This document shows, piece after piece, positions 10,374 to 61,793 of a DNA stretch of 64,000 bases; position 1 is the first letter of the stretch; each line of letters opens with the position of its first letter. Position numbers and translations under genes: made by a program. Source of the stretch: Gemmatimonadales bacterium (GTDB lineage: Bacteria; Gemmatimonadota; Gemmatimonadetes; Gemmatimonadales; GWC2-71-9). The notes beneath the pieces were generated by a model. It saw nothing but the letters and a program-made list of their open reading frames with translations. It was not told where the DNA came from and did no database searches. Where the stretch lies: NCBI GenBank assembly GCA_033764615.1, contig JANRIU010000063.1:2779-66778 (forward strand). Reading direction: 5' to 3'.

Positions 10374-10490
10374 GGCGGACTGGCGGACTGGCGGACTGGC
10401 GGACTGGCGGACTGGCGGACTGGCTGCAACGCAACCCGCGTTTCTCGCCGAGTCAACCGTCCGCCCTTCCGCCCGACCGCTCGTCCGCCC
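10374..10490. repeat. octamer inverted-repeat element A: (GGCGGACT)x6, 35-nt spacer, GTCCGCC-unit arm
   Basis: Six perfect tandem GGCGGACT copies at 10374-10421. The opposing arm ccgtccgcccttccgcccgaccgctcgtccgccc lies at 10457-10490, overlapping the 3' end of the phosphatidyltransferase gene. Confidence 0.85.
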
Positions 10491-11040
10491 TCCCCAGTCG
10501 GATCTCCGCCACCCCCGTGAGCTTCTGGTAGTCCCACACCGACCAGCCGGCGAGCAGCGTGGTCACGAGGGCGAGCGGGCGGGTGAGCGGGGTGTCGACG
10601 AGCGCCGAGGCGAGCGTGGCGACCTGCACGAAGGTGACCGACTTGCCGCTCCAGCGCGACGGGACGCTGATCGGCATGCGCTTCGCCCGGCGCACGAAGA
10701 ACGCCATCGACAGGATGAAGTCGCGGAAGAGGCAGCCCGCGGCCTCGGGCCAGGTGAGCCAGCCGTCCCAGGCGAGCGCGCCGAACGCCATCCCCATGAA
10801 CAGCTTGTCGGCGACCGGGTCGAGCAGCGCGCCGAGGCGCGAGGGGCCGAGGCGGCGGGCGAGCCAGCCGTCGGCGACGTCGCTGAGCGCGGCGAACGTG
10901 AGCAGGCCGAGCCGCACCGGCGACGACACGACGAGCACGAACGCGAGACCGACCGGCAGGCGCGAGAGCGTGAGCAGGTCGGCGACGCTCCACCGCGCGT
11001 CGTCTTGCTGGCCTCCCGGCGCCGGGGTACCTTCGGACAT
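10453..11040 (-). CDS. CDP-alcohol phosphatidyltransferase family protein
   Basis: Motif D-x2-DG-x2-AR-x8-G-x3-D-x3-D is present (SDVADGWLARRLGPSRLGALLDPVADK). Multiple TM segments. The C-terminal GRADERSGGRADG is encoded by the repeat arm. Confidence 0.8.
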   Translation of the reverse strand: MSEGTPAPGGQQDDARWSVADLLTLSRLPVGLAFVLVVSSPVRLGLLTFAALSDVADGWLARRLGPSRLGALLDPVADKLFMGMAFGALAWDGWLTWPEAAGCLFRDFILSMAFFVRRAKRMPISVPSRWSGKSVTFVQVATLASALVDTPLTRPLALVTTLLAGWSVWDYQKLTGVAEIRLGRADERSGGRADG

Positions 11041-11074
11041 CCCCGCCCTGTCCTCCGAGGCCGCTGGCGCGACG

Positions 11075-11533
11075 ATGGACATCTCCCTGCTGAAGAACAC
11101 CGCGATCTTTGCCGGGCTCGACGACGACGAGCTGCAGCGCGTCGCCGAGATCTGCCGTCCCCAAAGATACAAGTCGGCCGAGGTGATCTTCAAAGAGGGG
11201 GAGCCGGGCAACCGGCTGTTCATCGTGCAGGAGGGGAGCGTGCGCATCTCCCGCACGATCCCCGGCGTGGGCGAGGAGGCGCTGGCGGTGCTCAAGCCCG
11301 GCGCGTGCTTCGGCGAGATGGCCGTGCTCGACCGCTCCGAGCGCTCCACCGATGCGATCGCCAACGACGCCTGCCTGATCCAGACGATCGCCCGGCCCGA
11401 CTTCGAGATGCTCGTGGACTTCGACCACGAGCTCGGCTACAAGGTCATGAAGGCGGTGGTGCAGCTGCTCTGCTCGCGCCTGCGCGCGACCAACGACAGC
11501 CTGCGCTCCTTCCTCGCCATGAGCATGTTCTGA
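11075..11533 (+). CDS. stand-alone cyclic-nucleotide-binding domain protein
   Basis: 152 aa with cNMP-binding fold signatures (IFKEGEPGNRLFIVQEGSV, GACFGEMAVLD). Confidence 0.8.
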   Translation: MDISLLKNTAIFAGLDDDELQRVAEICRPQRYKSAEVIFKEGEPGNRLFIVQEGSVRISRTIPGVGEEALAVLKPGACFGEMAVLDRSERSTDAIANDACLIQTIARPDFEMLVDFDHELGYKVMKAVVQLLCSRLRATNDSLRSFLAMSMF

Positions 11534-12301
11534 ATGACGATCGACACCGCGGTGATCCCCTGCGGCGGCCTCGGCCGGCGCCTGATGCCGATGACCCGCT
11601 GGCTCCCCAAGGAGCTGCTCCCCGTCGGGCTCAAGCCCTCGCTCTACTGGGCGCTCGACGAGGCGGTGGATGCGGGGATCCACAACGTCGTGCTCGTGGT
11701 GAACCCCCACAAGCCGATGGTCGAGGCCGCGGCCCGCCAGTACCTCGGGCCGCTCTCCATCGAGTTCGTGCCGCAGCCGAAGCCGCAGGGCCTCGGCGAC
11801 GCGCTCCTGCTCTGCCGCGACATCCTCGAAGGGCAGCCGTTCGCGGTGCTCTTCGCCGACCACCTGTTCATGGGTCGCGGCGGCACGCACGCCGTCCTCG
11901 ACGCGTGGCGCACCTTCCGCAAGCCGACCGTGCTCGTCAACGACCCGATGGGGCCGATGCCCGTCGGCGTGACGCGCCGCGCGCGCATCCGGAAGGGGGA
12001 GGACGGGCAGTACCACGTGCGGGCCGTCGGCCGCCGGAACGACGAGGGGCTGCAGCAGAAGGACGGCGCGATGGAGGCGGTGGCGGTCGGCCGGTTCGTC
12101 TACCCCGGCGACGTCTTCGACCGCCTCGCCGCCGAGGATCGCCGCCTCGGCGCCGACGGCGAGCTGAGCGACCTCGCGCTGCTGCGGAAGCTGGCCGAGG
12201 CCGATGAGCTGCGCGCGGTGATGACCAACTCGCAGGTCTTCGACATCGGCACGCCCGAGGGATACCGGACCGCGGTCAGCGCGTTCCCGGCCGTGGCGTA
12301 G
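11534..12301 (+). CDS. sugar-phosphate nucleotidyltransferase (GalU/UDP-glucose pyrophosphorylase-like)
   Basis: N-terminal AVIPCGGLGRRLMPMTRWLPKELLPV matches the nucleotidyltransferase G-x-G-x-R loop. Its start abuts the previous stop (TGAATG). Confidence 0.75.
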   Translation: MTIDTAVIPCGGLGRRLMPMTRWLPKELLPVGLKPSLYWALDEAVDAGIHNVVLVVNPHKPMVEAAARQYLGPLSIEFVPQPKPQGLGDALLLCRDILEGQPFAVLFADHLFMGRGGTHAVLDAWRTFRKPTVLVNDPMGPMPVGVTRRARIRKGEDGQYHVRAVGRRNDEGLQQKDGAMEAVAVGRFVYPGDVFDRLAAEDRRLGADGELSDLALLRKLAEADELRAVMTNSQVFDIGTPEGYRTAVSAFPAVA

Positions 12302-12332
12302 CAGCTCCTCCGAACACACCCCGAAGCCAGTC

Positions 12333-12365
12333 GACGGGCGCCCGGTGAGAATCCGGGCGCCCGTC
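12333..12365 (+). terminator. intrinsic terminator after the nucleotidyltransferase gene
   Basis: A 13-bp perfect GC-rich stem (gacgggcgcccgg / ccgggcgcccgtc) with a 7-nt loop, followed by gtgcgtttctcc. Confidence 0.7.
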
Positions 12366-12419
12366 GTGCGTTTCTCCTGATGCAGGCCAGAAACTCCACA
12401 CCAGCGTTCCGGAGGCACC

Positions 12420-13391
12420 ATGCACTCGACCGTTCGCGGCGCGGTGATGCCGCTCCTGGGCCTTGCCCTCGCCCTGCCCGCCCTCGCGACCGCGCAGCAG
12501 ACGTGGTCGGTGGAGGGGTTCGGGTACTCTCCCGCGCTCTCCACGTTCCTGTTCGATATCGATGGCGCGGGGAAGGACATTCGCAACACGAATGGGACGG
12601 GCGTGGTCACGCGGCGGGACCCGGCGGGGCCGTTCGTTGAGGGGAGGTACTCCGACCCGGAGGCACACGAGGCGAGGGCCAGCGTGCGCCGGTATCTGGG
12701 GGATTACCGCGACCGTCCGATCTACGGCCTGCCGGGCGACCTTCACAGCGCGCAACTCGGCGTGGGCGTCGAGAACAGCAGGGCCGGGATGAGCGGATCC
12801 ACCGACTCCTACGTGCAATTCCAGGACTATCTCACGATCACCGCGTGGGGAGGGTCCGACCAGCGCATCGGCGCGTACTTCCTCGGCAGCTTCACGGGCG
12901 AGTCGTTCTCCATGTATCGCTCGACGGCGAAGATGTCGTTCTGGGTCGAGAACATCACGCAGGGCTGGGTCTCGGGCAGCAACGACGCGGTGCTTGTCCA
13001 GGACGGCGGCGACGGTGCCGACGTTGACATGATCTGCGGCCGTTCGCTCGGCTTCGACCTCCGGTGCGCGGTCGATCCGATCAACCTTAGCCTGGCGCGC
13101 GGGAACTGGCGCTCGCAGATCTGGACCTCGCTCGACGGCCGCACCTTCCAGGGCGACGTGCTCCGAGTCTTCATGCGCATGGCGGTGTCCGTCCCGCCGT
13201 TCATCAGGGCGGGCGCCAACCTGTTCCAGACGGGTGGCATGCTGATCCGCGGCGACGGCATCCAGGTCTCGTCGGCGTCCGGCACGTGGGGCGTGGTGCA
13301 GGCGCCCACCACCGTCGTCCCGGAGCCGTCGACGTACGCGCTCCTCGGCGGCGGGCTGCTGCTGCTCGGCATCGCGAGCCGGCGGCGGTAG
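12420..13391 (+). CDS. PEP-CTERM sorting-domain secreted protein
   Basis: Signal peptide (LLGLALALPALATAQ) and a C-terminal VPEPSTYALLGGGLLLLGIASRRR, which gives the PEP motif, a TM helix and an Arg cluster. Confidence 0.8.
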   Translation: MHSTVRGAVMPLLGLALALPALATAQQTWSVEGFGYSPALSTFLFDIDGAGKDIRNTNGTGVVTRRDPAGPFVEGRYSDPEAHEARASVRRYLGDYRDRPIYGLPGDLHSAQLGVGVENSRAGMSGSTDSYVQFQDYLTITAWGGSDQRIGAYFLGSFTGESFSMYRSTAKMSFWVENITQGWVSGSNDAVLVQDGGDGADVDMICGRSLGFDLRCAVDPINLSLARGNWRSQIWTSLDGRTFQGDVLRVFMRMAVSVPPFIRAGANLFQTGGMLIRGDGIQVSSASGTWGVVQAPTTVVPEPSTYALLGGGLLLLGIASRRR

Positions 13392-13400
13392 ACGCGACAC

Positions 13401-13428
13401 GGGGCGGGGTCGCGATCGACCCCGCCCC
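13401..13428. terminator. bidirectional terminator hairpin between convergent genes
   Basis: Perfect palindrome ggggcggggtcg-cgat-cgaccccgcccc, giving a 12-bp stem. Confidence 0.6.
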
Positions 13429-13483
13429 GGTGGCGGACGGCAGCGGCAGCGGCGCGGGGCGATCGCCCCGCGCCGCGTCGCGT

Positions 13484-14317
13484 TCAGCGCAGCGCCAGCA
13501 GCAGCAGCCCCGCGCCCCCGAGCGCCAGCACCCACCAGTACGCCGCCACCATCTCGACGATCCCGCGGCCGGCCCCGGCCGCGCTCTCGCCCGGCGTGCC
13601 CGCCGGCAGCGCACTCGCGAGGCGCTCGTCGCCCGGCAGCAGGCTGAGGCCGAGCGCGCTGCGCGCGTACGGGTCGGTCGCCTCATGGAGCAGCGCGCCC
13701 ACCTTGTTCTGCTGGCCGAACGGCCCGCTCGTCACCGCGGCCAGGAACTTCCGTTCCTGCGCCAGAACGGGGTGCCCCGGCGCGATCGCCTCGGCGAGCT
13801 TCAGCTGCTCCGCCGCCTCGGCGACGCGGTCCATGCGCACGAGCAGGTGCGCGTAGCGCGCGCGCACGAGCGCGTTCTCCGGCAGGATCCGCAGCGCCTG
13901 CAGGATGGCGCGCTCCGCCGCGTCGAGGTGGTTGAGCTGCGTCTCGCAGTTGCAGAGCAGGTAGTAGAGCGCGCCCGAGTTGGGATGCTTCTCGATCCCC
14001 TGCTGCGTGATCTCGCCCGCCTCGAGGAAGCGCTGGAGCTCGTACAGCGCCTGCCCCCGCATGAACCAGGCGTCCTCGCGCGTGACGGCCTTCTGCCAGA
14101 TGCCGTCCAGCAGCTCGAGCGCCTCCCCCGGCTGGCCCATGGTGAGGGCCTCGCGGATGACGTCCATGATCAGGGAGCGCGCGCCCCCCTCCTCCGGCCG
14201 CGCGACACCGGCCAGCGCGGCACGCGCCGACGCCGACGAGCCCTGACGGGCGGCGCCACGGGAGGCGGGGCGCGGAGCGCCACCGGGCGGCGGACCGCCG
14301 AGCGGGGGGATGGTCAT
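13484..14317 (-). CDS. TPR-repeat protein with C-terminal TM anchor
   Basis: Repeated A/L/Y-rich 34-residue patterns and a hydrophobic C-terminus, VAAYWWVLALGGAGLLLLAL. Confidence 0.6.
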   Translation of the reverse strand: MTIPPLGGPPPGGAPRPASRGAARQGSSASARAALAGVARPEEGGARSLIMDVIREALTMGQPGEALELLDGIWQKAVTREDAWFMRGQALYELQRFLEAGEITQQGIEKHPNSGALYYLLCNCETQLNHLDAAERAILQALRILPENALVRARYAHLLVRMDRVAEAAEQLKLAEAIAPGHPVLAQERKFLAAVTSGPFGQQNKVGALLHEATDPYARSALGLSLLPGDERLASALPAGTPGESAAGAGRGIVEMVAAYWWVLALGGAGLLLLALR

Positions 14318-14386
14318 GCGGGGAGTATCGGCCGGAGCACCCGCTCACCTGAACAGCCGTGACGACAGGCAGCGGCCCGGCGCCGC

Positions 14387-17032
14387 TCAGCGGCCGCCGC
14401 CCGTCCCGCGGACGACGCCCTCGGCGCGGCGCTCGGGGGCGAGTGCCGCGCGGGCGACGGCGAGCACGTCCATCGCCGTGACGGCCCGGTAGGGGGCGCC
14501 GGGGTCGTCGAGCTCCTGCAGCCCCTCGCCCGCGATCCACGCATCCACGATCTCCGCGAGCACCGACGACGCGCTCTGGCGGCTCACCTCGGCCTGGCCC
14601 GCGAGGTAGTTGCGGGCGCGGTCGAGCTCGGCCTCGGTGACGCGCTCGCGGGCGAAGCGGCCGAGCTCGATGAGCATCGCCTCGCGCGCCTCGGCCTCGC
14701 GCTCGGGCGCGGTGGCGATGTAGGTGAGCAGCGCACCGGCGCGCCGCTTCTGCCACGTGGACGCCACGACCGAGTACGCGAGCGATCGCTGATCGCGCAG
14801 CGCCTCGAAGAGCCGCCCGCCGAGCCCGCCGGCGACGGCGGCCCACACCTCGGCAGCCCACCGCTCGGGGGCGCGGCGGTCGGGGCCCATGAACACCATG
14901 GCGAACGCGGACTGCGCCTTCTGCCGCTCGGCCTCGCGCGTGACGGGATGGTCGGTGATCGCATAGAGCTGCGGCGGCGGTGGCGGCGCGGCCTCGGCGG
15001 CGGGGAAGCTGCCGAACGCGGCCGCCAGCGCCTCGCGCGCGCCATCGGGGTCGAGGTCGCCGACGGCGACGACGAGCGGGCGCGCCGCGCGCCACGCGCC
15101 GCGGTGCCAGTCGGCCACGGCGGTGAGGGGGATGCCGGCGAGGGTGTCGGGGAGGCCGCTCGCGGGCAGGCCGTATCCCTCGTCGCCGAACGCGGCGCGG
15201 AAGGCGAGCTGGAACGGGTGGCGGAACATGTCGTCCGCCACCTGCAGCGCCTCCTGCCGCATGAGGCCGCGCTCGGTCTCGACGCTCGACGCCTCGTGGT
15301 GCGGGGCCGCGATCACGTCGGCGAGCAGGTGCGCGGCCTCGCCGAGGTGCTCGCTCAGCACGCTGGTGCCGAAGCCGATCCAGTCGAGGCCGACCGACGG
15401 CGCGAGCGTGCCGCCGAGCCCCTCGAAGGCGAACGCGAGCGCGGCCGCGTCGCGCCCGTTGGCGCCCCGCACCGCCGAGCGCGTCGCGAGCGCCGCGAGC
15501 CCCGCCCACTCGGCGGGCTCGGGGTGCGCGCGGGGGATGTACGCGCCGAGCGCCACGAGCGGCACGCCGCGCTTGGGGCGCACGACGATGTCGGCCCCGG
15601 GGAGCGCGAGCGTCAGCACCCGCGTGGGCGCGCGCGGCGGACGGGCGGACCCGCGGACCGGCGGACGGGAAGCCGGGGAGATGGCGGCGCCCGCGCTCGA
15701 GCCCTCCGCCCGTCCGCCGGTCCGCCCGCCCGCCCCGGCGGCGGCGAACAGGTCGGCCAGCGCCGTCGCATCGACCCCATGCGCCGCCGCCGCAGGCACG
15801 TAGGCCACCGCGCACACCGCCTCGGGCCGCAGCCAGCGCGCGGCGGCGTCGCGGATCTCCTCCGCGGTGGTGCGCTCGAGCGCCGCGAACTCCTCCTCGA
15901 GCAGGTGGAGGCCGCCCATCGCCTCGGCGTTCGCGAGCGAGGAGGCGCGCCCCTCGGTCGCCTCCATGCCGCGCGCCCAGCGCGCGAGGAGCAGCGTGCG
16001 TGCGCGCGCGAGGTCGTCGGCCGTGGGGCCCGCCTCGGCGAGGCGGCGCGTGGCGGCGGCGACGGCGGCGAGCACGTCGGGAAGGCGCGCGGGTTCGAGC
16101 TCGGCGCCGACGGAGAAGACGCCCAGCTCGCTCGGCTGGTAGTGCCATGCGCCGATGGAGGAGGCGAGTCCCGACTCGCGGACGGCGCGCTGCAGCCAGC
16201 TCCCGCGCCCGCTCGCGAGCACGGCGGCGGCGAGGTCGAGCGGCGCGGAATCCGCGTGCGACGGGGGAACGGCGCGCCAGCCGATGGCGAGGTCGGCCTT
16301 GGCGACCTCGCCGCGCAGCGTGCGGGCGCGCACCTCCGCGCGCGGCGGCTCCGCGGGCGAGGCGTCGGCCGAGCCGGGGCGCGCCTCCCAGCCGCCGTAC
16401 GCCTCGCGCGCGAGCGCGGCGGCCTCCGCCACGTCGACGTCGCCGACGATGCTCACGATGGTGCGCTCCGGCACGTAGCGCGAGCGGTAGTAGGTCCAGA
16501 GGTCGTCGCGCGTCATGGCGGCGAGGCCGGCCTCGGTGCCGATGCGCCAGCGGCGGATGCGGTGGTGGTCGAACATCACCTCGTGCAGCGTCTCGTGGCA
16601 GACGGCCGACGGCGTGTCGAGCTTCCGCTTCGCCTCCTGGATGATCACCTGGAGCTCGCGCCGCAGCTCGTCGGCGTCGAGGGCGCAGTGCATCAGCGCG
16701 TCGGCCTGCAGGTCGAGCGCCGTGGCGAGGCCGGAGGCGGGGAGGACGACGAAGTAGCTGGTGCGGTCGTACGAGGTGGAGGCGTTGAGGTAGCCGCCGG
16801 CGGCCTTCGTCTCGCGCGCGAGCGCGCCGGGGCCGCGCCGCGCGGTCCCCTTGAAGTACATGTGCTCGAGGACGTGGGAGATCCCCTGCACCGCGTCGGG
16901 CTCGTCGAAGAAGCCGGCACGCACGTGCGTGACGACCGCGACGGCCGGCGCCGAGGGATCGGCCTGCACGAGGAGCGTGAGCCCGTTCGGCAGCACCTCG
17001 CGGTGCACGCCGGCCGTCCAGCGCGGCGGCAC
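14387..17032 (-). CDS. fused two-module M16 (pitrilysin-family) zinc peptidase
   Basis: The first module has the inverted zinc motif HVLEH. The second module is M16-like without HxxEH. GTG start at 17032 lies 2 nt after the upstream TPR gene's stop. The rest of the 1198-aa tracked ORF overlaps that TPR gene out of frame. Confidence 0.8.
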   Translation of the reverse strand: MPPRWTAGVHREVLPNGLTLLVQADPSAPAVAVVTHVRAGFFDEPDAVQGISHVLEHMYFKGTARRGPGALARETKAAGGYLNASTSYDRTSYFVVLPASGLATALDLQADALMHCALDADELRRELQVIIQEAKRKLDTPSAVCHETLHEVMFDHHRIRRWRIGTEAGLAAMTRDDLWTYYRSRYVPERTIVSIVGDVDVAEAAALAREAYGGWEARPGSADASPAEPPRAEVRARTLRGEVAKADLAIGWRAVPPSHADSAPLDLAAAVLASGRGSWLQRAVRESGLASSIGAWHYQPSELGVFSVGAELEPARLPDVLAAVAAATRRLAEAGPTADDLARARTLLLARWARGMEATEGRASSLANAEAMGGLHLLEEEFAALERTTAEEIRDAAARWLRPEAVCAVAYVPAAAAHGVDATALADLFAAAGAGGRTGGRAEGSSAGAAISPASRPPVRGSARPPRAPTRVLTLALPGADIVVRPKRGVPLVALGAYIPRAHPEPAEWAGLAALATRSAVRGANGRDAAALAFAFEGLGGTLAPSVGLDWIGFGTSVLSEHLGEAAHLLADVIAAPHHEASSVETERGLMRQEALQVADDMFRHPFQLAFRAAFGDEGYGLPASGLPDTLAGIPLTAVADWHRGAWRAARPLVVAVGDLDPDGAREALAAAFGSFPAAEAAPPPPPQLYAITDHPVTREAERQKAQSAFAMVFMGPDRRAPERWAAEVWAAVAGGLGGRLFEALRDQRSLAYSVVASTWQKRRAGALLTYIATAPEREAEAREAMLIELGRFARERVTEAELDRARNYLAGQAEVSRQSASSVLAEIVDAWIAGEGLQELDDPGAPYRAVTAMDVLAVARAALAPERRAEGVVRGTGGGR
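15636..15736. repeat. octamer inverted-repeat element B, embedded in-frame in the M16 peptidase gene
   Basis: Left arm ggcggacgggcggacccgcggaccggcggacggg (15636-15669). Right arm ccctccgcccgtccgccggtccgcccgcccgcccc (15702-15736). The segment gcggaccggcggacgg is matched by a perfect 16-nt complement in the right arm. Confidence 0.8.
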
Positions 17033-17034
17033 CG

Positions 17035-18162
17035 CTAGTGGATGATCCGCAGCACGCCCGCCTCGGCGCTGCCGCGGACGAACGCCTCCGCGCTGGTGAC
17101 GGGGATGACGATGCCGGTCTCGGTCTGGCCGCGCAGCGCCTGGCGCGCCATGAAGTCGCCCATCGAGAGGTGCGACGACTCGCCGTCGTTGGCGCGCATC
17201 TGCGTGACGATCTCGTCCCACGTGCCGCGGAAGGTGAGCCCGTGCACCGTGGTGACGAGGTGGATGTCGCCGGACGCCTGGCCCGGGCGCTTCTTCATCT
17301 CGTTCAGCTCGGTGAGCAGCGTGGCGAAGAGCTCGAGCTGGTTCGGGTCGCGCGTGGAGCCGTCGGGCTGCTGCGCCTCGACCTCGGCGAGCAGCATGTC
17401 GATGTCGTCCGGCTCGCCGCTCACCTCGGCCAGGCGCTCGACCCAGGGGGCGAGCTCGGGGTCGTCGTCGGGGAGGCGGTAGATCGTCTTCTTGAGCTCG
17501 ATGATGCGCCAGAGGCCGAGCTCGTCGAAGTGGTCGTCCGGCTCGGTGCGCTCGAGCTGGTGGAGCGACGCCTCGTACTCGCCGCGGTCGTACAGGATGT
17601 TGGCGAGGTAGATGCGCGCCTCGCCGTAGGTGCACTCGAGCGTCAGCGCGCGCCGGAGCCAGAACAGCGCGGCGGCGTCCTGGTTGAGCCGGTGGCAGGC
17701 GTAGCCCATGCACGCCGAGGCGTCGGCGGAGTCGGGGTGCGCCTGGCTGGCGAGGTCGAAGAACCGGTGCGCGGCCGCGATGTGCCCCTCGCGGAAGAGC
17801 GCGCGGCCGACCTGCAGGAGCAGGTCGTGGTCCTCGGCGAAGCCGAGCTGGAGGATGCGCTCGAAGCAGCGGAGCGCGCTCTCGCGGTGGCCGAGCTTGA
17901 GGAACGTCTCGCCGAGGCCGGCGAGCGCGTCCTCGTGGTCGGGGTCGAGGCCGAGCGCGGCCTCGAAGCTCCGACGGGCCCACGCGTACTCCTCGCGGGC
18001 GAGCTGGGCGTAGGCGCAGCCGACGTGGAGCTCCACCGCATGCGGGTAGACCTCCAGCCCGTCGCGCAGCATGCGCAGGGCGCCGTCGTAGTCGCCTTCG
18101 TTGTAGAGTCGGTGGGCCTGCTCGTCGAAATCGTCGGAACTGCGGAAGGAGGCTTCCGACAT
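17035..18162 (-). CDS. TPR-repeat protein
   Basis: 375 aa with several clear TPR units (AHRLYNEGDYDGALRML..., AWARRSFEAALGLDPDHEDA...). Confidence 0.75.
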   Translation of the reverse strand: MSEASFRSSDDFDEQAHRLYNEGDYDGALRMLRDGLEVYPHAVELHVGCAYAQLAREEYAWARRSFEAALGLDPDHEDALAGLGETFLKLGHRESALRCFERILQLGFAEDHDLLLQVGRALFREGHIAAAHRFFDLASQAHPDSADASACMGYACHRLNQDAAALFWLRRALTLECTYGEARIYLANILYDRGEYEASLHQLERTEPDDHFDELGLWRIIELKKTIYRLPDDDPELAPWVERLAEVSGEPDDIDMLLAEVEAQQPDGSTRDPNQLELFATLLTELNEMKKRPGQASGDIHLVTTVHGLTFRGTWDEIVTQMRANDGESSHLSMGDFMARQALRGQTETGIVIPVTSAEAFVRGSAEAGVLRIIH

Positions 18163-18298: not shown

Positions 18299-18913
18299 AT
18301 GTCCGACGATCCGCTGGTCCTCACCGGGCTCATCGCCCTCGTCTCGTATTTCGGCTGGCAGTGGTGGGGCGACCTGCGCGCGTGGCGCGCGGGGACGCCG
18401 AACCGGGGCGCGCTCCCCGGCGCCACGACCGCGCCTGCCGGCGCCGTGGCGCTCGCCGCTGCCGTCTCGCTCGCGATCCTCGGCGCGGAGGTCGGCGGCG
18501 AGTACGCGCTCGGCATCGTGGGCGAACAGTCGCGCCTCGGCTACCTGCTGGCGCTCTACACCCTGTTCGCGGCGTTCGTGGAGGAGCTCATCTTCCGCGG
18601 GCTGCTGTGGGACTGGGCGTCGGAGCGGGTCGGCGAACGGCTCGGGACGGCGGCGCTGGCCGTGGTGCTGTCACTCGTCTTCGCGCTGCTGCATCCGTTC
18701 CTGTGGGAGTGGAAGGACGGCGGCGTGCAGGTGCACCTGACGGTGAAGGCGTGGTTCAGCACGGCGATCACCTTCGTGAGCTCGCTCTGGTTCTACTGGG
18801 CGCGGCTGGCGGCGTGGAATCCCGAGCGGTCGCTGATCCCGCCGGTGGCGGCGCACCTGGCGCGGAACGCGGGGGTGATCGTGGTGAAGGGGGTGCAGGG
18901 GTTCCTGGGCTAG
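18299..18913 (+). CDS. CPBP-family intramembrane glutamic endopeptidase (CAAX protease-like)
   Basis: EELIFRG motif, a later FALLHP motif, and multiple TM segments. Confidence 0.8.
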   Translation: MSDDPLVLTGLIALVSYFGWQWWGDLRAWRAGTPNRGALPGATTAPAGAVALAAAVSLAILGAEVGGEYALGIVGEQSRLGYLLALYTLFAAFVEELIFRGLLWDWASERVGERLGTAALAVVLSLVFALLHPFLWEWKDGGVQVHLTVKAWFSTAITFVSSLWFYWARLAAWNPERSLIPPVAAHLARNAGVIVVKGVQGFLG

Positions 18914-18934
18914 GGGGCCGGGAGCCGGGAGCCA

Positions 18935-18975
18935 GGGGCCGGGGGCGACGCGTGGCAGCGGTCGCACCCGGCCCC
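18935..18975 (+). terminator. terminator-like hairpin after the CPBP protease gene
   Basis: A 15-bp stem with one mismatch (ggggccgggggcgac / gtcgcacccggcccc) and an 11-nt loop. It is preceded by heptamer-like GCCGGGA repeats. Confidence 0.5.
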
Positions 18976-19007: not shown

Positions 19008-19124
19008 GGCGGACGAGCGGACGGGCGTGCGGGCGGACCGTGGCCATGTGCCGGAGGATGGCATCCGGGGCGCTGGCGCTCCTCCTCGTCCAGACCGCCG
19101 CTCCGCCCGTCCGCCTGACCGCCC
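19008..19124. repeat. octamer inverted-repeat element C, flanking the TolC-like start codon
   Basis: Left arm ggcggacgagcggacgggcgtgcgggcggacc (19008-19039). Right arm ccgccgctccgcccgtccgcctgaccgccc (19095-19124). The ATG at 19046 lies in the spacer. Confidence 0.75.
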
Positions 19125-20386: not shown

Positions 20387-20402
20387 GCGGCGGCGGGGTG
20401 CG

Positions 20403-20427
20403 GGGGCGGCGTGCCGTGCGCCGCCCC
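20403..20427. terminator. hairpin between convergent TolC-like and OMP genes
   Basis: A 9-bp stem: ggggcggcg - tgccgtg - cgccgcccc. Confidence 0.45.
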
Positions 20428-52146: not shown

Positions 52147-52586
52147 GGCGCCGCGCGGGGCTGCTCGCCGCGCTGGCCCTCGCGGCCGCCTGCGCCGGGC
52201 GGGAGAAGCCGGCGGCGGCGGACGACGCCGCGCCGCCGGCGCCGGACGCGCAGGCCGACGCCGACCGGCTCGGTCGCGAGCTGTTCGAGCTCGCCGACCG
52301 CACCGACAGCTACCGGGCCACGCACAAGCGGATGGCGAAGTCGTTCCGGGACATCGGCATCGACTCGCTGACGCCCGAGACGGCGCGGCGGCTCGCCGTG
52401 TCGGGGAAGGCGTTCCGCATCACCGTGGAGTTCCGCCAGGTCGAGGGACACCTGCTCCGCTCCTGCGAGGGGGACGAGCGGGTCATCGAGGAGGCGGCGC
52501 TCCACGAGGGCGTCTTCCCGCTCGAATGCACCCTGCTCGACGGCACGCGCGAGCGGCGGCTGGTCGGCGGCTCGAAGGGCGCCTGA
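52143..52586 (+). CDS. hypothetical lipoprotein
   Basis: The GTG start overlaps the desaturase stop (GTGA). Lipobox-like LALAAAC. Confidence 0.5.
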   Translation: MRRRAGLLAALALAAACAGREKPAAADDAAPPAPDAQADADRLGRELFELADRTDSYRATHKRMAKSFRDIGIDSLTPETARRLAVSGKAFRITVEFRQVEGHLLRSCEGDERVIEEAALHEGVFPLECTLLDGTRERRLVGGSKGA

Positions 52587-52589
52587 GGC

Positions 52590-53171
52590 GTGTGGCCCGA
52601 CGTGCTGGAGCGCGCCGCCCAGGTGGTGGCGGCCGGCGGTTTCGCGTACGCGGCGGTCGTCTTCGGCACCACGTGGGCGGTGCGGCAGGGGCACCTGCAG
52701 CCGTTCGGCGCGTGGCCCCGCCTCGTCCGCTCGCTCGGCGACCCCCTGCTCAAGCCGCTCGAACGCCGCCTGCTCCGGAGTGGCGGCAACCCGGTCGACG
52801 CGCCGCTCTGGCTCTTCGGCAGTTCGATCGTCGTGGGCCTCGTGCTGGTCACGGCCACCCGCTGGCTCATCTCGCTGTACTTCCAGTTCGCCGGCCTCGC
52901 CACGGCCGGGCCGAGGATGCTGGCCGCGAGCGTGGCGGCGCTGGTGTTCAACGTGCTGCAGTTCGCCCTGCTCATCCGCGTGCTCGGCAGCTGGTTCGGG
53001 ATCACGGGCGAGGAGTCGTGGATGCGTCCCGTGCGCATCCTGACCGACTGGCTGCTCGACCCCCTCCGGCGCATCATCCCGCCGTTCGGCCCCTTCGACC
53101 TGACGCCGCTGGCCGCGTACTTCGCGCTCAGGATCGCGGGGGACGCGCTCGTGCGGGCGCTGGCTGGGTAG
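52590..53171 (+). CDS. YggT-family membrane protein
   Basis: Two YggT-like halves, with ALLIRVLGSWFGI and LDPLRRIIPPFGPFDLTPL. Confidence 0.65.
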   Translation: MWPDVLERAAQVVAAGGFAYAAVVFGTTWAVRQGHLQPFGAWPRLVRSLGDPLLKPLERRLLRSGGNPVDAPLWLFGSSIVVGLVLVTATRWLISLYFQFAGLATAGPRMLAASVAALVFNVLQFALLIRVLGSWFGITGEESWMRPVRILTDWLLDPLRRIIPPFGPFDLTPLAAYFALRIAGDALVRALAG

Positions 53172-53174
53172 GAG

Positions 53175-53285
53175 GCGGGGCGGACGGGCGGACGGGCGGA
53201 CTGGCGGACCGGCGGACTGGGCATCGTGCACGCACGGCCGCCCGCCCACGAAGCCGCCTTCCGCCCGTCCGCTCGCCCGCCCCCC
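53175..53285. repeat. octamer inverted-repeat element F (yggT / metF intergenic)
   Basis: The left arm (53175-53221) has five GGCGGAC units. The right arm ccgcccgcccacgaagccgccttccgcccgtccgctcgcccgcccccc lies at 53238-53285. Confidence 0.8.
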
Positions 53286-53357
53286 GAGCGGCACTTTCCT
53301 TGCAGCACGCGGTATTCATGGCTAGCCTTCCGCCGTCCGATAATCGACGTCCGGCGT

Positions 53358-53400
53358 CGTGGCGATTTGTGCAGCTTGCGGCCACGTAAAACAACCGCTA
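53358..53400 (+). ncRNA. candidate H-type pseudoknot riboswitch (SAM-II/SAM-V-like) in the metF-metH leader
   Basis: P1 is CGUGGC (53358-63) pairing with GCCACG (53381-86). The U-rich L1 is GAUUUGUGCAGC. The loop 3' end UUGCGG can pair with the downstream CCGCUAA. The A-rich L3 is UAAAACAA. The GAUUU...GCUUG segment resembles SAM-II conserved positions. Confidence 0.3.
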
Positions 53401-53408
53401 AACCGCGC

Positions 53409-53433
53409 GCCCGGGGCGGTTCTCTCCCCGGGC
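53409..53433 (+). terminator. GC-rich hairpin in the metF leader (possible expression platform)
   Basis: An 8-bp stem (gcccgggg - cggttctct - ccccgggc) followed by aagccgtttcc. Confidence 0.35.
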
Positions 53434-53462
53434 AAGCCGTTTCCAGGGCAGGTACAGGACCG

Positions 53463-54349
53463 ATGCTGATTCCCTCCGCACCGCAGGACCTCAAGGTCTC
53501 GTTCGAGTTCTTCCCCCCCAAGTCGGCCGAGATGGAGGAGGCGCTGTGGCGCTCCATCAAGCGGCTGGAGCCGCTCGGGCCGCAGTTCGTCTCGGTGACG
53601 TACGGCGCGGGCGGCAGCACGCGCGAGCGGACGCACAACACGGTGCGCCGGATCGTGAAGGAGACGACGCTGCAGCCGGCCGCGCACCTGACGTGCGTGG
53701 CGGCGACGCAGGGCGAGCTCGACCAGGTGGCGGACGCATACTGGGGCGCGGGCGTGCGGCACATCGTGGCGCTCCGCGGCGACCCGCCGGGCGGGCAGGA
53801 GCGGTACACGCCGCATCCGGGCGGCTACGCCTGGACCGTCGACCTCATCGAGGGGCTCCGCCGCCTGCACGACTTCGAGATCACCGTCGCGTGCTTCCCG
53901 GAGGTGCACCCGGAGGCGCTCTCCGCCGAGGCCGACCTGGACAACCTGAAGCGGAAGATCGACGCCGGCGCCACGCGGGCGATCACGCAGTTCTTCTTCG
54001 ACAACGACGTGTACCTGCGCTTCGTCGACCGGGCGCGCGCGGCCGGCATCCACATCCCGATCCTGCCGGGGATCATGCCGGTCACGAACTTCAGGATGAT
54101 GGGCGTCTTCGCCGCGAAGGCGGGCGCCTCCGTCCCGGCGTGGCTCGGCACGCTGTTCGACGGGCTCGACGACGACGCCGAGACGCGGAAGCTCGTGGCG
54201 GCGACGGTGTGCGCCGAGCAGGTCCGCAAGCTGGAGGAGGCTGGGGTGCGCGAGTTCCACTTCTACACCTTGAACCGGGCCGATCTCTCCTACGCGATCT
54301 GCCACATCCTCGGCGTCCGGCCGGCCGCGGTGGCGGCGGGGAGCGCGGC

Positions 54350-54353
<4 letters not shown>
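53463..54353 (+). CDS. metF: 5,10-methylenetetrahydrofolate reductase
   Basis: [29 protein letters not shown] and ITQFFFD motifs. Confidence 0.92.
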
Positions 54354-58140
<3,787 letters not shown>

Positions 58141-58141
<1 letters not shown>

Positions 58142-58277
58142 GCGGACGGGCGGACGAGCGGACGAGCGGACGGGAACCAGAGCGTGAAGAGACGTGGGCG
58201 CGAGGGACGCCCCGTCGCCCTGACCGGACGTGCCCACCGGACGTCCGCCTGACCGCCCGTCCGCTCGTCCGCCTCCC
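58141..58277. repeat. octamer inverted-repeat element G (metH / acyl-CoA dehydrogenase intergenic)
   Basis: Left arm ggcggacgggcggacgagcggacgagcggacggg starts at the last base of the metH stop codon. Right arm cgtccgcctgaccgcccgtccgctcgtccgcctccc lies at 58242-58277. Confidence 0.8.
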
Positions 58278-58315
58278 TAGATTTCCCCCGCCCCCCGACC
58301 GGAGCCCCGCCCGCC

Positions 58316-59476
58316 ATGACCACGCTCGCCGCCCCCCAGCCGCTGTCGCTCCTCTCCGAGGAGGAGCAGATGTTCCGCGACGCGGTGCGCGAGTTCGCCG
58401 AGAGCGAAGTCCGCCCGCACGTCTCCGGGATGGACGAGGCGGGCGCGTTCCGCGCCGACCTCGTCGCGAAGTTCTTCGAGCAGGGGCTGATGGGGATCGA
58501 GGTGCCGGAGCGGTTCGGCGGCGCCGGCGCATCCATCTTCCTCGCGACGCTCGCCATCGAGGAGCTCGCGCGCGTGGACGCCTCCGCGGCGATCTACGTC
58601 GACGTGCACAACACGCTCGTCAACAACGCCTTCCTCAAGTGGGGGACGCCGGCCCAGCACGAGGCGTGGTTCCCCCGGCTCACGGGCGGCCTGCTCGGCG
58701 CGTTCGCGCTCTCCGAGCCGGGCAGCGGCTCCGACGCCTTCGCGCTGGCCACGCGCGCCGTGCAGCACGACGACCACTGGTCGCTCACGGGGCGGAAGCT
58801 CTGGATCACGAACGGCGCCGAGGCCGGCGTCTTCATCGTGTTCGCGAACGTCGACCCGTCGAAGGGCTACAAGGGGATCACCGCGTTCCTCGTCGAGCGC
58901 GACACCCCCGGCTTCACGGTCGGCAAGAAGGAGAACAAGCTCGGCATCCGCGCCTCCAGCACCACGGAGCTGATCCTCGAGGACGCGAAGGTGCCCGCGG
59001 CCAACGTGCTCGGCCCCGTCGGCCAGGGCTACAAGATCTCCATCGAGACGCTCAACGAGGGGCGCATCGGCATCGGCGCGCAGATGCTCGGCATCGCGCG
59101 CGGCGCGCTGGAGGCGGCGACCGCGTACGTGAAGGAGCGGAAGCAGTTCGGGAAGGCGATCGGCGAGTTCCAGGGGGTGCAGTTCCAGCTCGCCGAGATG
59201 GCGACCGACCTCGAAGCCGCGCGCCTGCTGGTGTACAACGCCGCGCGCCTCAAGGACGCGGGGAAGCCGTTCGTGCAGGAGGCGGCGATGGCGAAGCTCT
59301 TCGCCTCGCGCATGGCGGAGCGCGTCACCTCGATGGCGATCGAGCTGTTCGGCGGGAATGGCTACTCGAAGGAGTACCCGGTCGAGAAGTTCTGGCGCGA
59401 TGCCAAGATCGGCCAGATCTACGAGGGGACCAGCAACATGCAGCTGCAGACGATCGCGAAGGGGTTGCTCCGCTAG
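58316..59476 (+). CDS. acyl-CoA dehydrogenase (short/branched-chain type)
   Basis: ALSEPGSGSDA, ITNG, and the catalytic-base region YEGTSNMQ near the C-terminus. Confidence 0.92.
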   Translation: MTTLAAPQPLSLLSEEEQMFRDAVREFAESEVRPHVSGMDEAGAFRADLVAKFFEQGLMGIEVPERFGGAGASIFLATLAIEELARVDASAAIYVDVHNTLVNNAFLKWGTPAQHEAWFPRLTGGLLGAFALSEPGSGSDAFALATRAVQHDDHWSLTGRKLWITNGAEAGVFIVFANVDPSKGYKGITAFLVERDTPGFTVGKKENKLGIRASSTTELILEDAKVPAANVLGPVGQGYKISIETLNEGRIGIGAQMLGIARGALEAATAYVKERKQFGKAIGEFQGVQFQLAEMATDLEAARLLVYNAARLKDAGKPFVQEAAMAKLFASRMAERVTSMAIELFGGNGYSKEYPVEKFWRDAKIGQIYEGTSNMQLQTIAKGLLR

Positions 59477-59483
59477 AGGGGGT

Positions 59484-59525
59484 GCCGGCGGGCCGGGCGC
59501 ATGTTATGCCGCCCGGCCCGCCGGC
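59484..59525. terminator. bidirectional terminator between the acyl-CoA dehydrogenase and fasciclin genes
   Basis: A perfect 16-bp stem (gccggcgggccgggcg / cgcccggcccgccggc) with a 10-nt AT-containing loop, catgttatgc. Confidence 0.65.
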
Positions 59526-59541
59526 CCTCATGCCGCCCTGC

Positions 59542-60039
59542 TCAGGGCATGACCACCGCGTCGATCACGTGGATCACGCCGTTCGAGGCCATGATGTCGG
59601 CCTTCACGACGTTCGCCGCCATCCCCTTGCCCACGTGCACCGCCTTGCCGGCGAGGTGGATCGGCAGCTCGCTGCCCTCGACCGTCTTCGGCTTCACGTT
59701 GCCGTCCTTGTCGGCGAGCTTCGTCAGGTCGCCGGCGTGCACCATGCCGGGCACCACGTGGTACGTCAGCACCTTCGTCAGCTTCGCCTTGTCCTTGAGC
59801 AGCGCCTCGAGCGCCGCCTTCGGCACCTTCGCGAACGCCTCGTCCGTCGGCGCGAAGACGGTGAACGGCCCCTTGCCCTTCAGCGTCTCGACGAGGCCGG
59901 CGGCCTGGAGCGCCGTGGCGAGCGTCTTGAAGCTGCCGGCGGCGACGGCCGTCTCGACGATGTCCTTCTGCTGGGCCGCCGACGGCGCGGCGACGGCGAA
60001 CGCCGCGACCGCGGCCAGGGCGAGCGAACGAATGCGCAT
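59542..60039 (-). CDS. fasciclin (FAS1) domain secreted protein
   Basis: Signal peptide, [17 protein letters not shown] and [11 protein letters not shown] motifs. Confidence 0.85.
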
Positions 60040-60202
60040 CTTCTTCTCCGGTAACGCGTTGTAGGGGGGCACACCGCCACCCCGCTTCGGGGTGACGAAT
60101 CATGTACCCGACCGCACCGCTCGGGTTCCCGGCTTGGCACCGTTCCTGCCCTTCCGATATCCAGCCTTGACCAACAGCGTTCCGGAGGCGGAAGTTTCTG
60201 CC

Positions 60203-61675
60203 ATGTTACCGTCCAAGAGCCATGCTGCCGTGTCCTGCGCCGTGCTGGCGGTCGTCCTGGCGGCGCCAGCGCGCGCGCAGGACCGCGCGGAGCTCGTCAA
60301 GACGATGGACAGCTGGTACCGCGGCGCCGAGAAGCGGGCGCGGGGCCAGTGGGGGATTGCGATCGCCGACCAGTCGGGGCGCGTGCTGTGGGAGGTGGGG
60401 GCGCGCGAGCCGATGGTGCCGGCCTCCACGGTGAAGGTGCTCACGACCGGCTTCGCGCGGACGATGCTCGGCGGCGACGCGCGCCGGCCGACGCGCGTGC
60501 TGGGCCAGGGCGAGGTCGACCCGCAGACGGGGGACTGGCTCGGCACCTGGGCGCTGGAGCTCAACGGCGACCCGACGCTCGAGCGCGAGGAGCTCGCAGG
60601 CCCGACGCTCGCCGACCTCGCGCAGCAGCTGCGCGCGCGCGGCATCCGCCGCCTGACCGGGCCGCTGCAGGTGCGGAGCGCGGAGGGGCCGGCCGAGGCG
60701 TCGTACCCGTCGGTCTGGTCGCCGAAGCACTGGGGGCGGTGGTTCGCGCCGCTCGTCGGTTCGCTCATCGTGCGCGAGAACGCGATCAGCATCGCCGTAG
60801 GCCCCGGCGGCAAGGCGGGGGCGCCGGCGCGCATCGTCGGCGAGGAGCCGCGCGGCGTCGGCTCGCTGGTGACGATCCGCGCGAAGACGGTGGCGGGGCG
60901 CCGCTCGCGGCTCGCGCTCTCGCGGCGCGATGGCGGCGGCTGGGTGCTGGCGGGGACGATCGGCAGCCGCGCGCTGCCGCGGCGGCTGCAGGCGATGTCG
61001 CACGACCCGCGCGCCGTGCTGCGGGCCTCGTGGGCCGCGGCGCTCCGCCAGGCGGGGATCGACTGGCTCCCGGCCGACGCGCTCTCCGCCACGGCGCCGA
61101 CGCGCGAGGTGGTGGTGCTCGGCGAGGTTCGCTCGCCGACGCTCGACTCGATCGCCGTCGCCGTCAACCGCAAGTCGATCAACCTCGGCGCCGAGGCGCT
61201 GCTGCGCTGGGCCGGCGGCCCGGAGCGCCCCGCCGAGCTGCTCACCGAGCACGTGCGCACGGTGACGGGCGAGGAGTCGGTCATGCTCGTGGACGGCTCC
61301 GGCCTCTCCTACGACGACCGCGTCAGCCCGTTCGCCTTCGTCCAGTACCTCGCCCGCTTCCCCGCCACGCCCGCGGGCCGGAACTTCGCGGCGCTGCTGC
61401 CGGCCAACGGCACGGGCACCCTCTGGCGCATGCGTCGCGGCCTCCCCGGCGCCGGCGTGGTGCGCGCGAAGACGGGCACGCTCAACGAGGTGGCGACGCT
61501 CGTCGGCTACCTCGGGCGCGAGAACGAGGTGCTGCTCTTCTCCCTCATGTACAACGGCCCGGTCCCCTGGACGGCGCGCGCCGAGCAGTGGCGGCTGTTC
61601 CGCATGCTCGGCGCGCGGATGACGCCGGTGGAGATGGAGACGCCGGTGGACGAGGGGGACCTGCTCGGGGGCTGA
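60203..61675 (+). CDS. dacB: D-alanyl-D-alanine carboxypeptidase/endopeptidase (PBP4, S13 family)
   Basis: Signal peptide, the SxxK motif PASTVK, DGSGLS (SxN-like) and KTGTL. Confidence 0.85.
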   Translation: MLPSKSHAAVSCAVLAVVLAAPARAQDRAELVKTMDSWYRGAEKRARGQWGIAIADQSGRVLWEVGAREPMVPASTVKVLTTGFARTMLGGDARRPTRVLGQGEVDPQTGDWLGTWALELNGDPTLEREELAGPTLADLAQQLRARGIRRLTGPLQVRSAEGPAEASYPSVWSPKHWGRWFAPLVGSLIVRENAISIAVGPGGKAGAPARIVGEEPRGVGSLVTIRAKTVAGRRSRLALSRRDGGGWVLAGTIGSRALPRRLQAMSHDPRAVLRASWAAALRQAGIDWLPADALSATAPTREVVVLGEVRSPTLDSIAVAVNRKSINLGAEALLRWAGGPERPAELLTEHVRTVTGEESVMLVDGSGLSYDDRVSPFAFVQYLARFPATPAGRNFAALLPANGTGTLWRMRRGLPGAGVVRAKTGTLNEVATLVGYLGRENEVLLFSLMYNGPVPWTARAEQWRLFRMLGARMTPVEMETPVDEGDLLGG

Positions 61676-61685
61676 GGGCGCCGCG

Positions 61686-61793
61686 GGGCGGACTGGCGGA
61701 CTGGCGGACTGGCGCAGAGGGACGCCCGAACCGGCACGTCCTCAGTGTGCTCCAGTGGCCGCCCGCCCGTCCGCCCGTCCGCTCGTCCGCCGC
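61686..61793. repeat. octamer inverted-repeat element H (between convergent dacB and the RND pump)
   Basis: Left arm ggggcggactggcggactggcggactggcg (61686-61714). Right arm ccgcccgcccgtccgcccgtccgctcgtccgccgc (61759-61793), overlapping the 3' end of the RND gene. Confidence 0.8.

Follow-up and report, generated by a model that had tools for sequence, protein, structure and literature searches.

Cyanobacteria carry STRR heptamers, intergenic tandem units of 7 nt that form hairpins at some places, for example between hupS and hupL or upstream of hoxW, and for which a role in transcript stability or translational coupling has been suggested (PMC2670836). Another set of short tandem units is found in Geobacter metallireducens. 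There, sites of three to five tandem units of 7–9 nt (GTTGCTYN, TCTCCGTS[Y] and MTYCTGA) make up 24, 21 and 8 pairs in classes 1–3, and they were read, with no evidence given, as binding sites of an IHF/HU-type protein or global regulator (PMC2700814, Aklujkar et al. 2009). We have analysed a stretch of 64,000 nucleotides from a Gemmatimonadales bacterium (contig JANRIU010000063.1; the window in what follows; G+C content 73.7%). It holds hairpins made of arrays of an octamer, GGCGGACN, in about three to six copies each, inverted around a spacer so that they face arrays of the reverse complement, NGTCCGCC. In our reading, which we hold tentatively, with a probability of about 0.42, these elements are DNA-level dispersed repeats, copied between loci by one route or another and then reshaped by replication slippage. 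An earlier note, made from the letters of the window, had described them as a single sequence family. This did not hold: the GGCGGAC hairpins are one family of an order-wide class that uses many different units of 7 or 8 nt.

Chance and base composition are ruled out as the origin of the family. The window contains 34 matches to GGCGGACNGGCGGAC with at most one mismatch, against 0.45 expected from dinucleotide-preserving shuffles, and Tandem Repeats Finder (TRF) reports period-8 arrays at every locus that the earlier note had listed. When an arm pair is defined as two or more exact GGCGGAC units with two or more exact GTCCGCC units no further than 200 nt downstream, the window has five convergent pairs and no divergent one, and 200 order-3 Markov simulations have none. 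The claims that a hairpin family is interspersed at gene boundaries well beyond chance, and that its two arms occur together more often than composition predicts, are thus upheld. Seven of the eight loci listed as hairpins are hairpins; the eighth, at 50217, is a solitary (AGGCGGGC) array that lacks a partner arm. With a ninth hairpin of variant units between acs and kup (6383-6474), also correctly seen, the tally for the window is seven GGCGGACN/NGTCCGCC hairpins, one variant hairpin and one solitary array. The seven are predicted to fold as the long imperfect hairpins that had been announced, at −67 to −86 kcal/mol, with z-scores between −3.8 and −7.4 for six of them and a weaker value of −1.8 for that at 19008; the variant is predicted to fold in the same way. 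Their two arms are 76–92% complementary over 24–36 nt, and the spacers between TRF-defined arms, 32–68 nt long, lack conservation, as the note had said. Genes were placed by frame analysis of G+C at third codon positions (GC3), six-frame translations and Pfam.

Nor is the family an artefact of assembly. Logan contigs assembled independently match the window at 100% identity across parts of the arrays, and the same architecture appears in many metagenome-assembled genomes (MAGs), long contigs included. Two Logan contigs, L001 (window 10395-15725) and L002 (10395-13501), belong to the same strain; the former starts and stops within octamer arrays and the latter starts within the same array as the former, breaks in keeping with a multicopy element.

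When GTDB, at one genome per species, was scanned for (GGCGGACN)x3, at least 118 stretches came up, and most of those listed come from Gemmatimonadales MAGs. Among the matches listed, a partner of at least two exact reverse-complement units lies within 160 nt downstream of 21 of 63 Gemmatimonadales arrays and upstream of none, a share that reaches about 57% when one mismatch is accepted; in other phyla, mainly Streptomyces and Kitasatospora, the partner is found for 0 of 45 arrays, all of them solitary. Over all loci examined, 24 GGCGGAC hairpins are convergent and a single one, at a Streptomyces locus, is divergent. IMG/VR viral contigs gave seven matches, each a solitary array and none of the hairpin type. 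Two viral contigs (L206 and L207) carry very long solitary arrays, such as mixed GGCGGACG/GGTGGACG runs that extend for some 350 nt, or adjoining (CCTGCC)n, (GGCGGACA)9 and (CTATCGGA)n arrays.

The variety of the class is best seen in a syntenic locus of another Gemmatimonadales genome (L201, 68% G+C), where most of the longer intergenic regions hold a hairpin with tandem-repeat arms. About 12 elements are found there in 22.7 kb, with at least six different units (GGCGGCTC, GGGGAAC/GGGAGAAC, GGCGTTGA, GAATGGCG, GGTGAAAG and GGGCCGA), and one of them sits in the same linker of an M16 peptidase as the window element at 15635. A TRF-based search of all the loci collected found 57 pairs of an array with its reverse-complement array: 49 in 570 kb of Gemmatimonadales, 7 in 573 kb of unclassified metH loci and a single one in 326 kb of other phyla. 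The period is 8 in 36 pairs, 7 in 20 and 6 in one; arrays of period 9–10, scanned in the same loci, formed no pairs. An arm holds about 3 to 17 copies, and some 40% of arrays are solitary. The 5′ arm has more G than C in 49 pairs and less in 2 (p = 1e-12); the G-rich array therefore comes first, on whichever strand one reads. Inspection of the units found Shine-Dalgarno-like or GGA (CsrA-like) content in some families and not in others, and this unevenness led us to reject such motifs as a general explanation.

Comparison of orthologous junctions shows sites that are filled in one genome and empty in another, the contrast that the earlier note had suggested looking for. Between the TPR and M16 genes, the window has 2 nt (TAGcgGTG) where L201 has 116 nt with a hairpin. 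The genes for a CDP-alcohol phosphatidyltransferase and for OsmC overlap by 4 nt in a second syntenic genome (L202), and lie 6 nt apart in a third (L203), 53 nt in a fourth (L204) and 102 nt, with an element, in the window; here the G-rich arm starts exactly where the proteins of the relatives end, and adds about 12 residues to the transferase. The syntenic junction between metH and the acyl-CoA dehydrogenase gene (acd) is empty in L193, while the window carries the element at 58141. L202 and L203 are free of such elements throughout their syntenic 22-kb regions, and the range among related genomes extends from 0 to 12 elements per 22 kb. In L204 the syntenic region has two small elements and a different, REP-like palindrome, GGGCGGCCACGAGGGCCGCCC, present in several copies (651-739 and 9879-10000) in a genome with few array hairpins. 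As for relatives close enough to give exact filled and empty junctions, a metagenome scan with the MetH C-terminus found none above 77% identity, exact-protein look-ups for two element-flanking proteins returned no match, and the next-best M16 homologues after the identical protein stand at about 62–64% identity.

The L201 locus also holds three unlinked copies of the GGCGGCTC family that have in common the loop GGCCrGTGGAGGAwTCACGGCCGA and the same adjacent variant unit, and that differ in the number of outer units. One is placed between two genes, another in the M16 linker and the third between convergent genes; this is true dispersal, followed by a change in arm length. Dispersal can be seen in this family; for that of the window, whose copies have only the unit in common, we infer it. 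Together with the empty orthologous junctions, the three copies bear out the REP/MITE-like behaviour that had been proposed.

When they settle, the arrays seem to take the place of what was there. Array-coded linker peptides are found in few of 104 M16 homologues (P0001, P0019/P0051, P0119 and perhaps P0104), and the linkers with an element exceed the median of 45 residues by only 6 to 15 residues, for elements that span 34–43 codons; arrays therefore mostly replace the linker and do not add to it. In signal peptides and at C-termini, constrained residues persist in the spacer and the arrays take the unconstrained flanks. The numbers of copies in the two arms are unequal and some arrays are perfect (6.4 copies, 100% identity), which points to replication slippage. 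Both edges of the arrays are abrupt. We looked for a polarity of array decay as a clue to growth, and rejected it: the apparent inner gradient is the partial last unit only. Two tandem paralogous genes of another locus (L010) each end in a hairpin of CGGGAAA units (4616-4695 and 7198-7268). Their 31-nt left arms are identical, their loops cannot be aligned, and the flanking coding DNA has diverged, with a mean column identity of 83% across the full alignment, which suggests that the arms were homogenised or conserved while the loops were free to change. That the flanking genes are tandem paralogues makes this a segmental duplication, and transposition was rejected as its explanation.

The scenario that we propose has the elements as self-propagating and largely non-adaptive repeats, in the sense in which this may be said of REP, MITE or STRR sequences. 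The array of units would be copied from locus to locus; the candidate routes are the action of a transposase and, between arrays, template switching or recombination. Judging from the perfect arrays and the unequal arm lengths, arms would then lengthen and shorten by replication slippage, and template switching within the palindrome would probably maintain their complementarity. Combined with deletion, this process would let the arrays overwrite neighbouring sequence that is under no constraint, be it intergenic DNA, C-terminal tails, the flanks of signal peptides or an interdomain linker, up to the stop codon or into it. As a possible side effect, transcripts that cross an element would gain a stem-loop of −67 to −86 kcal/mol directly 3′ of the stop, which may end transcription though it lacks a U-tract, or may shield the 3′ end. 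We favour this DNA-level, largely non-adaptive reading because no RNA-level selection was detected on the sense strand, the spacers are unstructured, the distribution is patchy and the elements overlap coding sequence.

The place of the arrays relative to genes has to be set beside this. Where the 3′ end of a gene faces an arm, the arm starts at most 6 nt from the stop codon in 24 of 45 cases, and the stop often lies within the first unit or is carried by a unit (TA followed by GGCGGAC; TGAATGG, GGTGAAA, CTAGACGG, GATAGCC). Among 69 solitary G-rich arrays, a sense-strand stop abuts the 5′ end in 26, an antisense stop the 3′ end in 2. The stop is TAG in 30 of 57 array-adjacent cases and in 97 of 377 elsewhere (odds ratio 3.2, p = 7e-5). 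The Gemmatimonadales hairpins lie between tandem genes (25), convergent genes (5) or divergent genes (5, one of them really tandem), within genes (9) or at contig edges (5). Among the intergenic regions taken as background, all of 60 nt or more, 110 are tandem, 51 divergent and 33 convergent. Other gene ends of the window have ordinary small G+C-rich hairpins in the equivalent position.

Such a layout invites a quite different view, which we deem somewhat unlikely: the elements would be RNA hairpins with a function, kept by selection at the ends of genes. They would terminate transcription without a U-tract, possibly in both directions, protect 3′ ends against exonucleases, or act between cistrons for stability or coupling, in the way of the REPs in Escherichia coli operons or of the role proposed for the STRR hairpins between hupS and hupL (PMC2670836). 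The nearness of arms to stops, the very stable predicted folds, the small hairpins that occupy the same place at other gene ends and the scarcity of elements in divergent regions all favour it, and with the G-rich arm first, C-rich RNA would never be exposed to Rho. Of what defines an intrinsic terminator, the elements have the GC-rich stem-loop just downstream of a gene and lack the U-tract: a T-run follows the stem at no element. A terminator scan of 50000-64000 found no site of the canonical hairpin-plus-T-run kind, so that the organism must end its transcripts otherwise, which speaks again for the hairpins. Selection on a sense-strand RNA is not supported: G-U pairs number 109 on the sense strand and 113 on the antisense strand, and of 38 elements, 18 have the more stable fold on the sense strand and 20 on the antisense strand. 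It is also difficult to see hairpins selected at gene ends in elements that lie within open reading frames (ORFs), as in the M16 linker and the signal peptides, or between genes that overlap or abut in relatives, in syntenic genomes that are entirely devoid of them, and in the large share of arrays that are solitary. The position after the stop, the lack of canonical terminators in the region scanned and the partial depletion from divergent regions make a role as terminator or 3′-end hairpin possible, be it secondary to dispersal or an alternative to it.

Two related ideas were put aside. One saw the spacer as an older terminator hairpin extended by arrays; spacers, however, fold no better than shuffled sequence, with a mean z-score of −0.18, against −0.31 for control segments. 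The other placed a promoter in the spacer, which would give mRNAs with complementary ends; at 53175 the sole promoter-like sequence, picked by eye, is 3′ of the C-rich arm, and a scan of 50000-64000 for consensus promoters found no promoter-like site.

Dispersal at the level of DNA meets several difficulties of its own. No transposase-like gene flanked by arrays of the same family is present in the 570 kb of Gemmatimonadales loci, and no mobilising enzyme was found; no target-site duplication was seen, by visual inspection, at the junctions read; and the 24 GGCGGAC spacers compared have no sequence in common. Many genomes that diverged deeply have one and the same GGCGGAC unit, a constancy that neutral drift leaves unexplained. 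A neutral DNA model supplies no demonstrated cause for the lead of the G-rich arm (49 against 2), nor has one been demonstrated for the anchoring of G-rich arrays to sense-strand stops (26 against 2) with its enrichment in TAG; chirality and anchoring could both be signs of function. In addition, divergent promoter regions hold somewhat fewer elements than their share of the background, about 4 of 35 where that share is 26%; a terminator role predicts this as well. Chirality and the deep conservation of the unit are explained neither by the DNA-repeat view nor by that of functional hairpins.

A more speculative proposal, to which we give little credit, is that the arrays are the product or the substrate of an active, lineage-specific process at gene ends. 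In a first form, reiterative synthesis of the telomerase kind, or slippage synthesis, would add G-rich repeats of 7–8 nt 3′ of stops, which would account for the (G-rich)n-(C-rich)n chirality, reminiscent of telomere fusions, for the period of 7–8 nt and for the sharp edges of the arrays. In a second form, the hairpins would serve as mobile sites of recombination, by which single genes travel as cassettes. This form comes from two genes that L201 has and the genomes syntenic with it lack, an inositol phosphatase gene between those of the CDP-alcohol phosphatidyltransferase and OsmC (14108-15158) and a DUF411 gene between kup and acs (19512-20221), each of which has a complete hairpin on either side, the two being of one unit family; in this genome, the elements may mark or mediate insertions of single genes.

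A strict REP/REPIN or MITE, mobilised in trans by a RAYT (IS200/IS605 Y1) or DDE transposase encoded elsewhere, is in our opinion improbable. The elements are extragenic, palindromic, multicopy and lineage-specific, with filled or empty sites and a conserved core in the L201 family, and TAG, often preceded by G, stands at the 5′ boundary in a way that recalls the GTAG head of REPs. This G is found in only about 11 of 17 junctions, however, close to what G/C-rich third codon positions would give by themselves; the arms are not palindromic REP units in their own right, the interior of the GGCGGAC copies is not conserved, and neither target-site duplications (by eye) nor array-flanked transposases turned up. 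A search for a RAYT, which the earlier note had suggested, could draw on 64 kb of this genome and on the 570 kb of Gemmatimonadales loci, and no RAYT or other transposase turned up: the four genes flanked by same-unit arrays in the 570 kb encode, from their translation starts or from Pfam, a hydrophobic membrane-type protein, a protein with a signal-peptide-like start, the inositol phosphatase and the DUF411 protein, none of them RAYT-like.

Tandem binding sites for a DNA- or RNA-binding protein, nucleoid-associated or global regulator, with the inverted pairs answering to a dimeric or bridging protein, would suit a period fixed at 7–8 nt and a unit that stays the same in many Gemmatimonadales species when spacers vary freely. 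Sites of the same architecture were read in this way in Geobacter (PMC2700814), a post-transcriptional regulator was suggested for the start-adjacent heptamers of Beggiatoaceae (PMC4679880), and an unidentified interacting protein for the heptamers of Nostoc (bioRxiv 10.1101/2022.06.06.494920). We find this reading hardly probable: at least six unrelated units in one L201 segment would require many proteins, no candidate for which was identified, copies per arm vary from about 3 to 17, and syntenic relatives lack the sites. Least probable by far are contingency loci, where changes in the number of 8-nt units would shift the frames of adjacent genes or the spacing of their expression signals. 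Units of 7 or 8 nt are indeed no multiple of 3, some arrays are perfect, hence hypermutable, and several elements overlap coding starts, ends or a linker; most copies, though, are purely intergenic and downstream of genes, and the genes affected are of the housekeeping kind (metH, acs, the M16 peptidase), not those of surface variation.

The individual elements are named here by their first position (Table 1).

Table 1. Array elements of the window, with predicted folds and gene context. Positions are those of the window.
Element	Position	Strand	Arms or array	Fold (kcal/mol)	z-score	Context
Variant hairpin, GGGGGGCA/GGAGGGCA/GGCGGGCC-type units	6383-6474		6384-6415 and 6443-6474, 81% complementary	−67.8	−3.05	Occupies the gap between the convergent stops of acs (+, 6382) and kup (−, 6474)
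Hairpin	10374-10490		G-rich (GGCGGACT) x6.4, 10374-10424, 100% identity (TRF); spacer 10425-10456; C-rich 10457-10490	−74	−7.4	CDP-alcohol phosphatidyltransferase (−) on one side, OsmC (−) on the other (Pfam)
Hairpin	15635-15736		15635-15666 and 15701-15735	−76.1	−4.6	Within ORF 14387-17035 (−), M16 peptidase
Solitary G-rich heptamer array	18913-18946	+	(GGGGGCC) x4.9 (TRF)			Begins at the stop codon of the Rce1-like gene
Hairpin	19008-19124		19008-19038 and 19102-19124	−68.2	−1.8 (weakest of the set)	Rce1-like gene (+) upstream, outer-membrane efflux protein (+) downstream
Hairpin	43809-43918		43810-43841 and 43887-43918	−80.7	−6.0	2 nt beyond the stop (43921-43923) of S9 prolyl oligopeptidase (−)
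Solitary array	50216-50254 (listed earlier as 50217-50261)	+	(AGGCGGGC) x4.9 (TRF); no complementary arm found		+0.57 (fold of 50205-50345)	Starts within the TAG stop of a small ORF
Hairpin	53175-53286		53178-53222 and 53261-53286	−82.3	−5.7	Begins 3-6 nt past the stop of a YGGT-family gene (53171); 3′ of it, SAM-II riboswitch 53349-53425, then the metH operon
Hairpin	58141-58277		58141-58174 and 58242-58273	−86.4	−5.7	Opens with the G of the metH TAG stop; 39 nt from its end to the acyl-CoA dehydrogenase ATG (58316)
Hairpin	61686-61793		61687-61714 and 61759-61791	−67.2	−3.8	Between convergent S13 peptidase (+, stop 61675) and RND-type transporter (−, stop 61742-61744)

Almost all copies had been said to sit exactly at gene boundaries, and this holds overall, save for the copy listed as 15636-15736. 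Read in frame on the minus strand, it encodes the linker between the two domains of an M16 peptidase: the GC3 frame runs unbroken across the element, Pfam recognises M16 and M16_C, and the 881-residue protein is identical to one annotated at NCBI as 'pitrilysin family protein [Gemmatimonadales bacterium]', encoded on a contig of 69 kb. A finer reading of the boundaries is also needed for four others, of which two (43809 and 19008) overlap N-terminal signal-peptide codons and two (10374 and 61686) provide C-terminal tails. The likely ATG of the efflux protein (19046 or 19058) is in the spacer of 19008, as is the hydrophobic core of its signal peptide, and the C-rich arm of the element codes for residues as far as the AQA site. 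Downstream of 43809, the sole plausible start of a solute-binding protein is the GTG at 43924, which overlaps the S9 stop; if this start is used, the whole element would be the signal peptide of that protein, with the spacer as its hydrophobic core. The stop codon of the transferase (10453-10455) lies inside the spacer of 10374, so that the transferase reads through one arm, and the last 16 residues or so of the RND-type transporter are encoded by an arm and the spacer of 61686.

A scan of the window with Rfam, which the earlier note had recommended as a way to find a catalogued family, returned no match at or above the gathering score at any element, and only c-di-GMP-I and SAM_alpha elsewhere. 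SAM_alpha is the SAM-II riboswitch at 53349-53425 (+, 40.9 bits for a gathering score of 36); it precedes an operon of 53463-54353 and metH (54350-58141), here in a Gemmatimonadales genome. The c-di-GMP-I riboswitch (4155-4252, −, 54.8 bits) is in a divergent region of 351 nt, 5′ of a small ORF at 3767-4075 (−). Two further places deserve mention. At 25991-26065 (+), a 24-codon ORF, MSWNKPQAEVVAVTMEVTAYVATL, with the E-x-x-x-Y motif of PqqA, which a gene caller would probably overlook, lies just 5′ of ORFs at 26132-29208. These are probably pqqB-E, because genes with Lactamase_B_2, TENA_THI-4, PqqD and radical-SAM domains adjoin the same small ORF in L201-L204. The 734 nt at 20387-21120, between convergent genes, contain no gene according to GC3-based calling, and the ORF list has a 194-residue frame there, at 20439-21023 (−).

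If the class is as widespread in Gemmatimonadales as our samples suggest, it is a major intergenic component, so far unannotated, of an abundant soil phylum, with a density that attains one element per 2 kb in one genome. In that case it has practical consequences, too. Arrays break short-read assemblies, as witnessed by independent contigs that terminate inside them; they mislead gene callers about starts, stops and protein termini; and they introduce low-complexity stretches into genuine proteins. The strict lead of the G-rich arm, the period of 7–8 nt and the anchoring to stops offer handles on the short tandem repeats of cyanobacteria, Beggiatoaceae and Geobacter, and syntenic Gemmatimonadales genomes that differ so widely in element density make up a natural comparative system in which to look for the enzyme responsible or for a selective benefit.

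It remains to place the elements among known repeats. By their published description, the Geobacter sites share the architecture: the two sites of a pair are on opposite strands, and the distance between them varies. They number in the tens, one pair at least is placed between genes (proB-proA), and they are species-specific, G. sulfurreducens having none; they differ in unit sequences and phylum, and the paper reports no hairpin energetics, stop anchoring, G-rich-arm chirality or coding overlaps (PMC2700814). STRR sequences, too, are dispersed intergenic arrays of short tandem units, some of them able to form hairpins. They belong to AT-richer organisms and follow the STRR consensus heptamers, mostly of 7 nt, in contrast with the 8-nt GGCGGACN of Gemmatimonadales; a systematic G-rich 5′ arm or stop anchoring is not described for them, and we found no report of STRR from Gemmatimonadota. 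The TAACTGA repeats of Beggiatoaceae, Cyanobacteria and Bacteroidetes resemble our arrays as abundant intergenic tandem heptamers a few bases away from a coding boundary, with a patchy phylogeny (MacGregor 2015, PMC4679880). Almost all of these are direct, however (169 sets against one indirect), they form no hairpins, and they lie just 5′ of start codons, not after stops (PMC4679880).

With REP, BIME and REPIN sequences the elements have in common that they are extragenic, palindromic and multicopy, that they are found at gene 3′ ends and between genes of operons, that inverted pairs make long hairpins, and that they are lineage-specific with filled or empty sites. Each REP is an imperfect palindrome of 20–40 nt with a GTAG or CGTC head, whereas the tandem GGCGGACN arms have no self-complementarity, pair only with one another and vary in their number of units. 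The two complementary arms answer to the terminal inverted repeats of MITEs; the junctions read by eye had no target-site duplication, and internal conservation is lacking in the 24 GGCGGAC spacers and present in the L201 family, as a core of 24 nt in three copies. On the defining features tested, the elements belong neither to strict REP/RAYT systems, nor to strict MITEs, nor to intrinsic terminators. The palindromic elements of Rickettsia are dispersed repeats that are tolerated in frame inside proteins, like the M16 linker and the terminal tails described here; they differ in that their full-length sequences are conserved and that their arms are not microsatellite arrays. The earlier note had not recognised the family. 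As a sequence family it is indeed absent from Rfam, and a search of the literature on repeats of Gemmatimonas or Gemmatimonadetes found nothing, but the design of its arms is one that STRR (PMC2670836) and Geobacter sites (PMC2700814) had already displayed. The architecture, then, has its precedents; what is new is the phylum, and the rules defined here.

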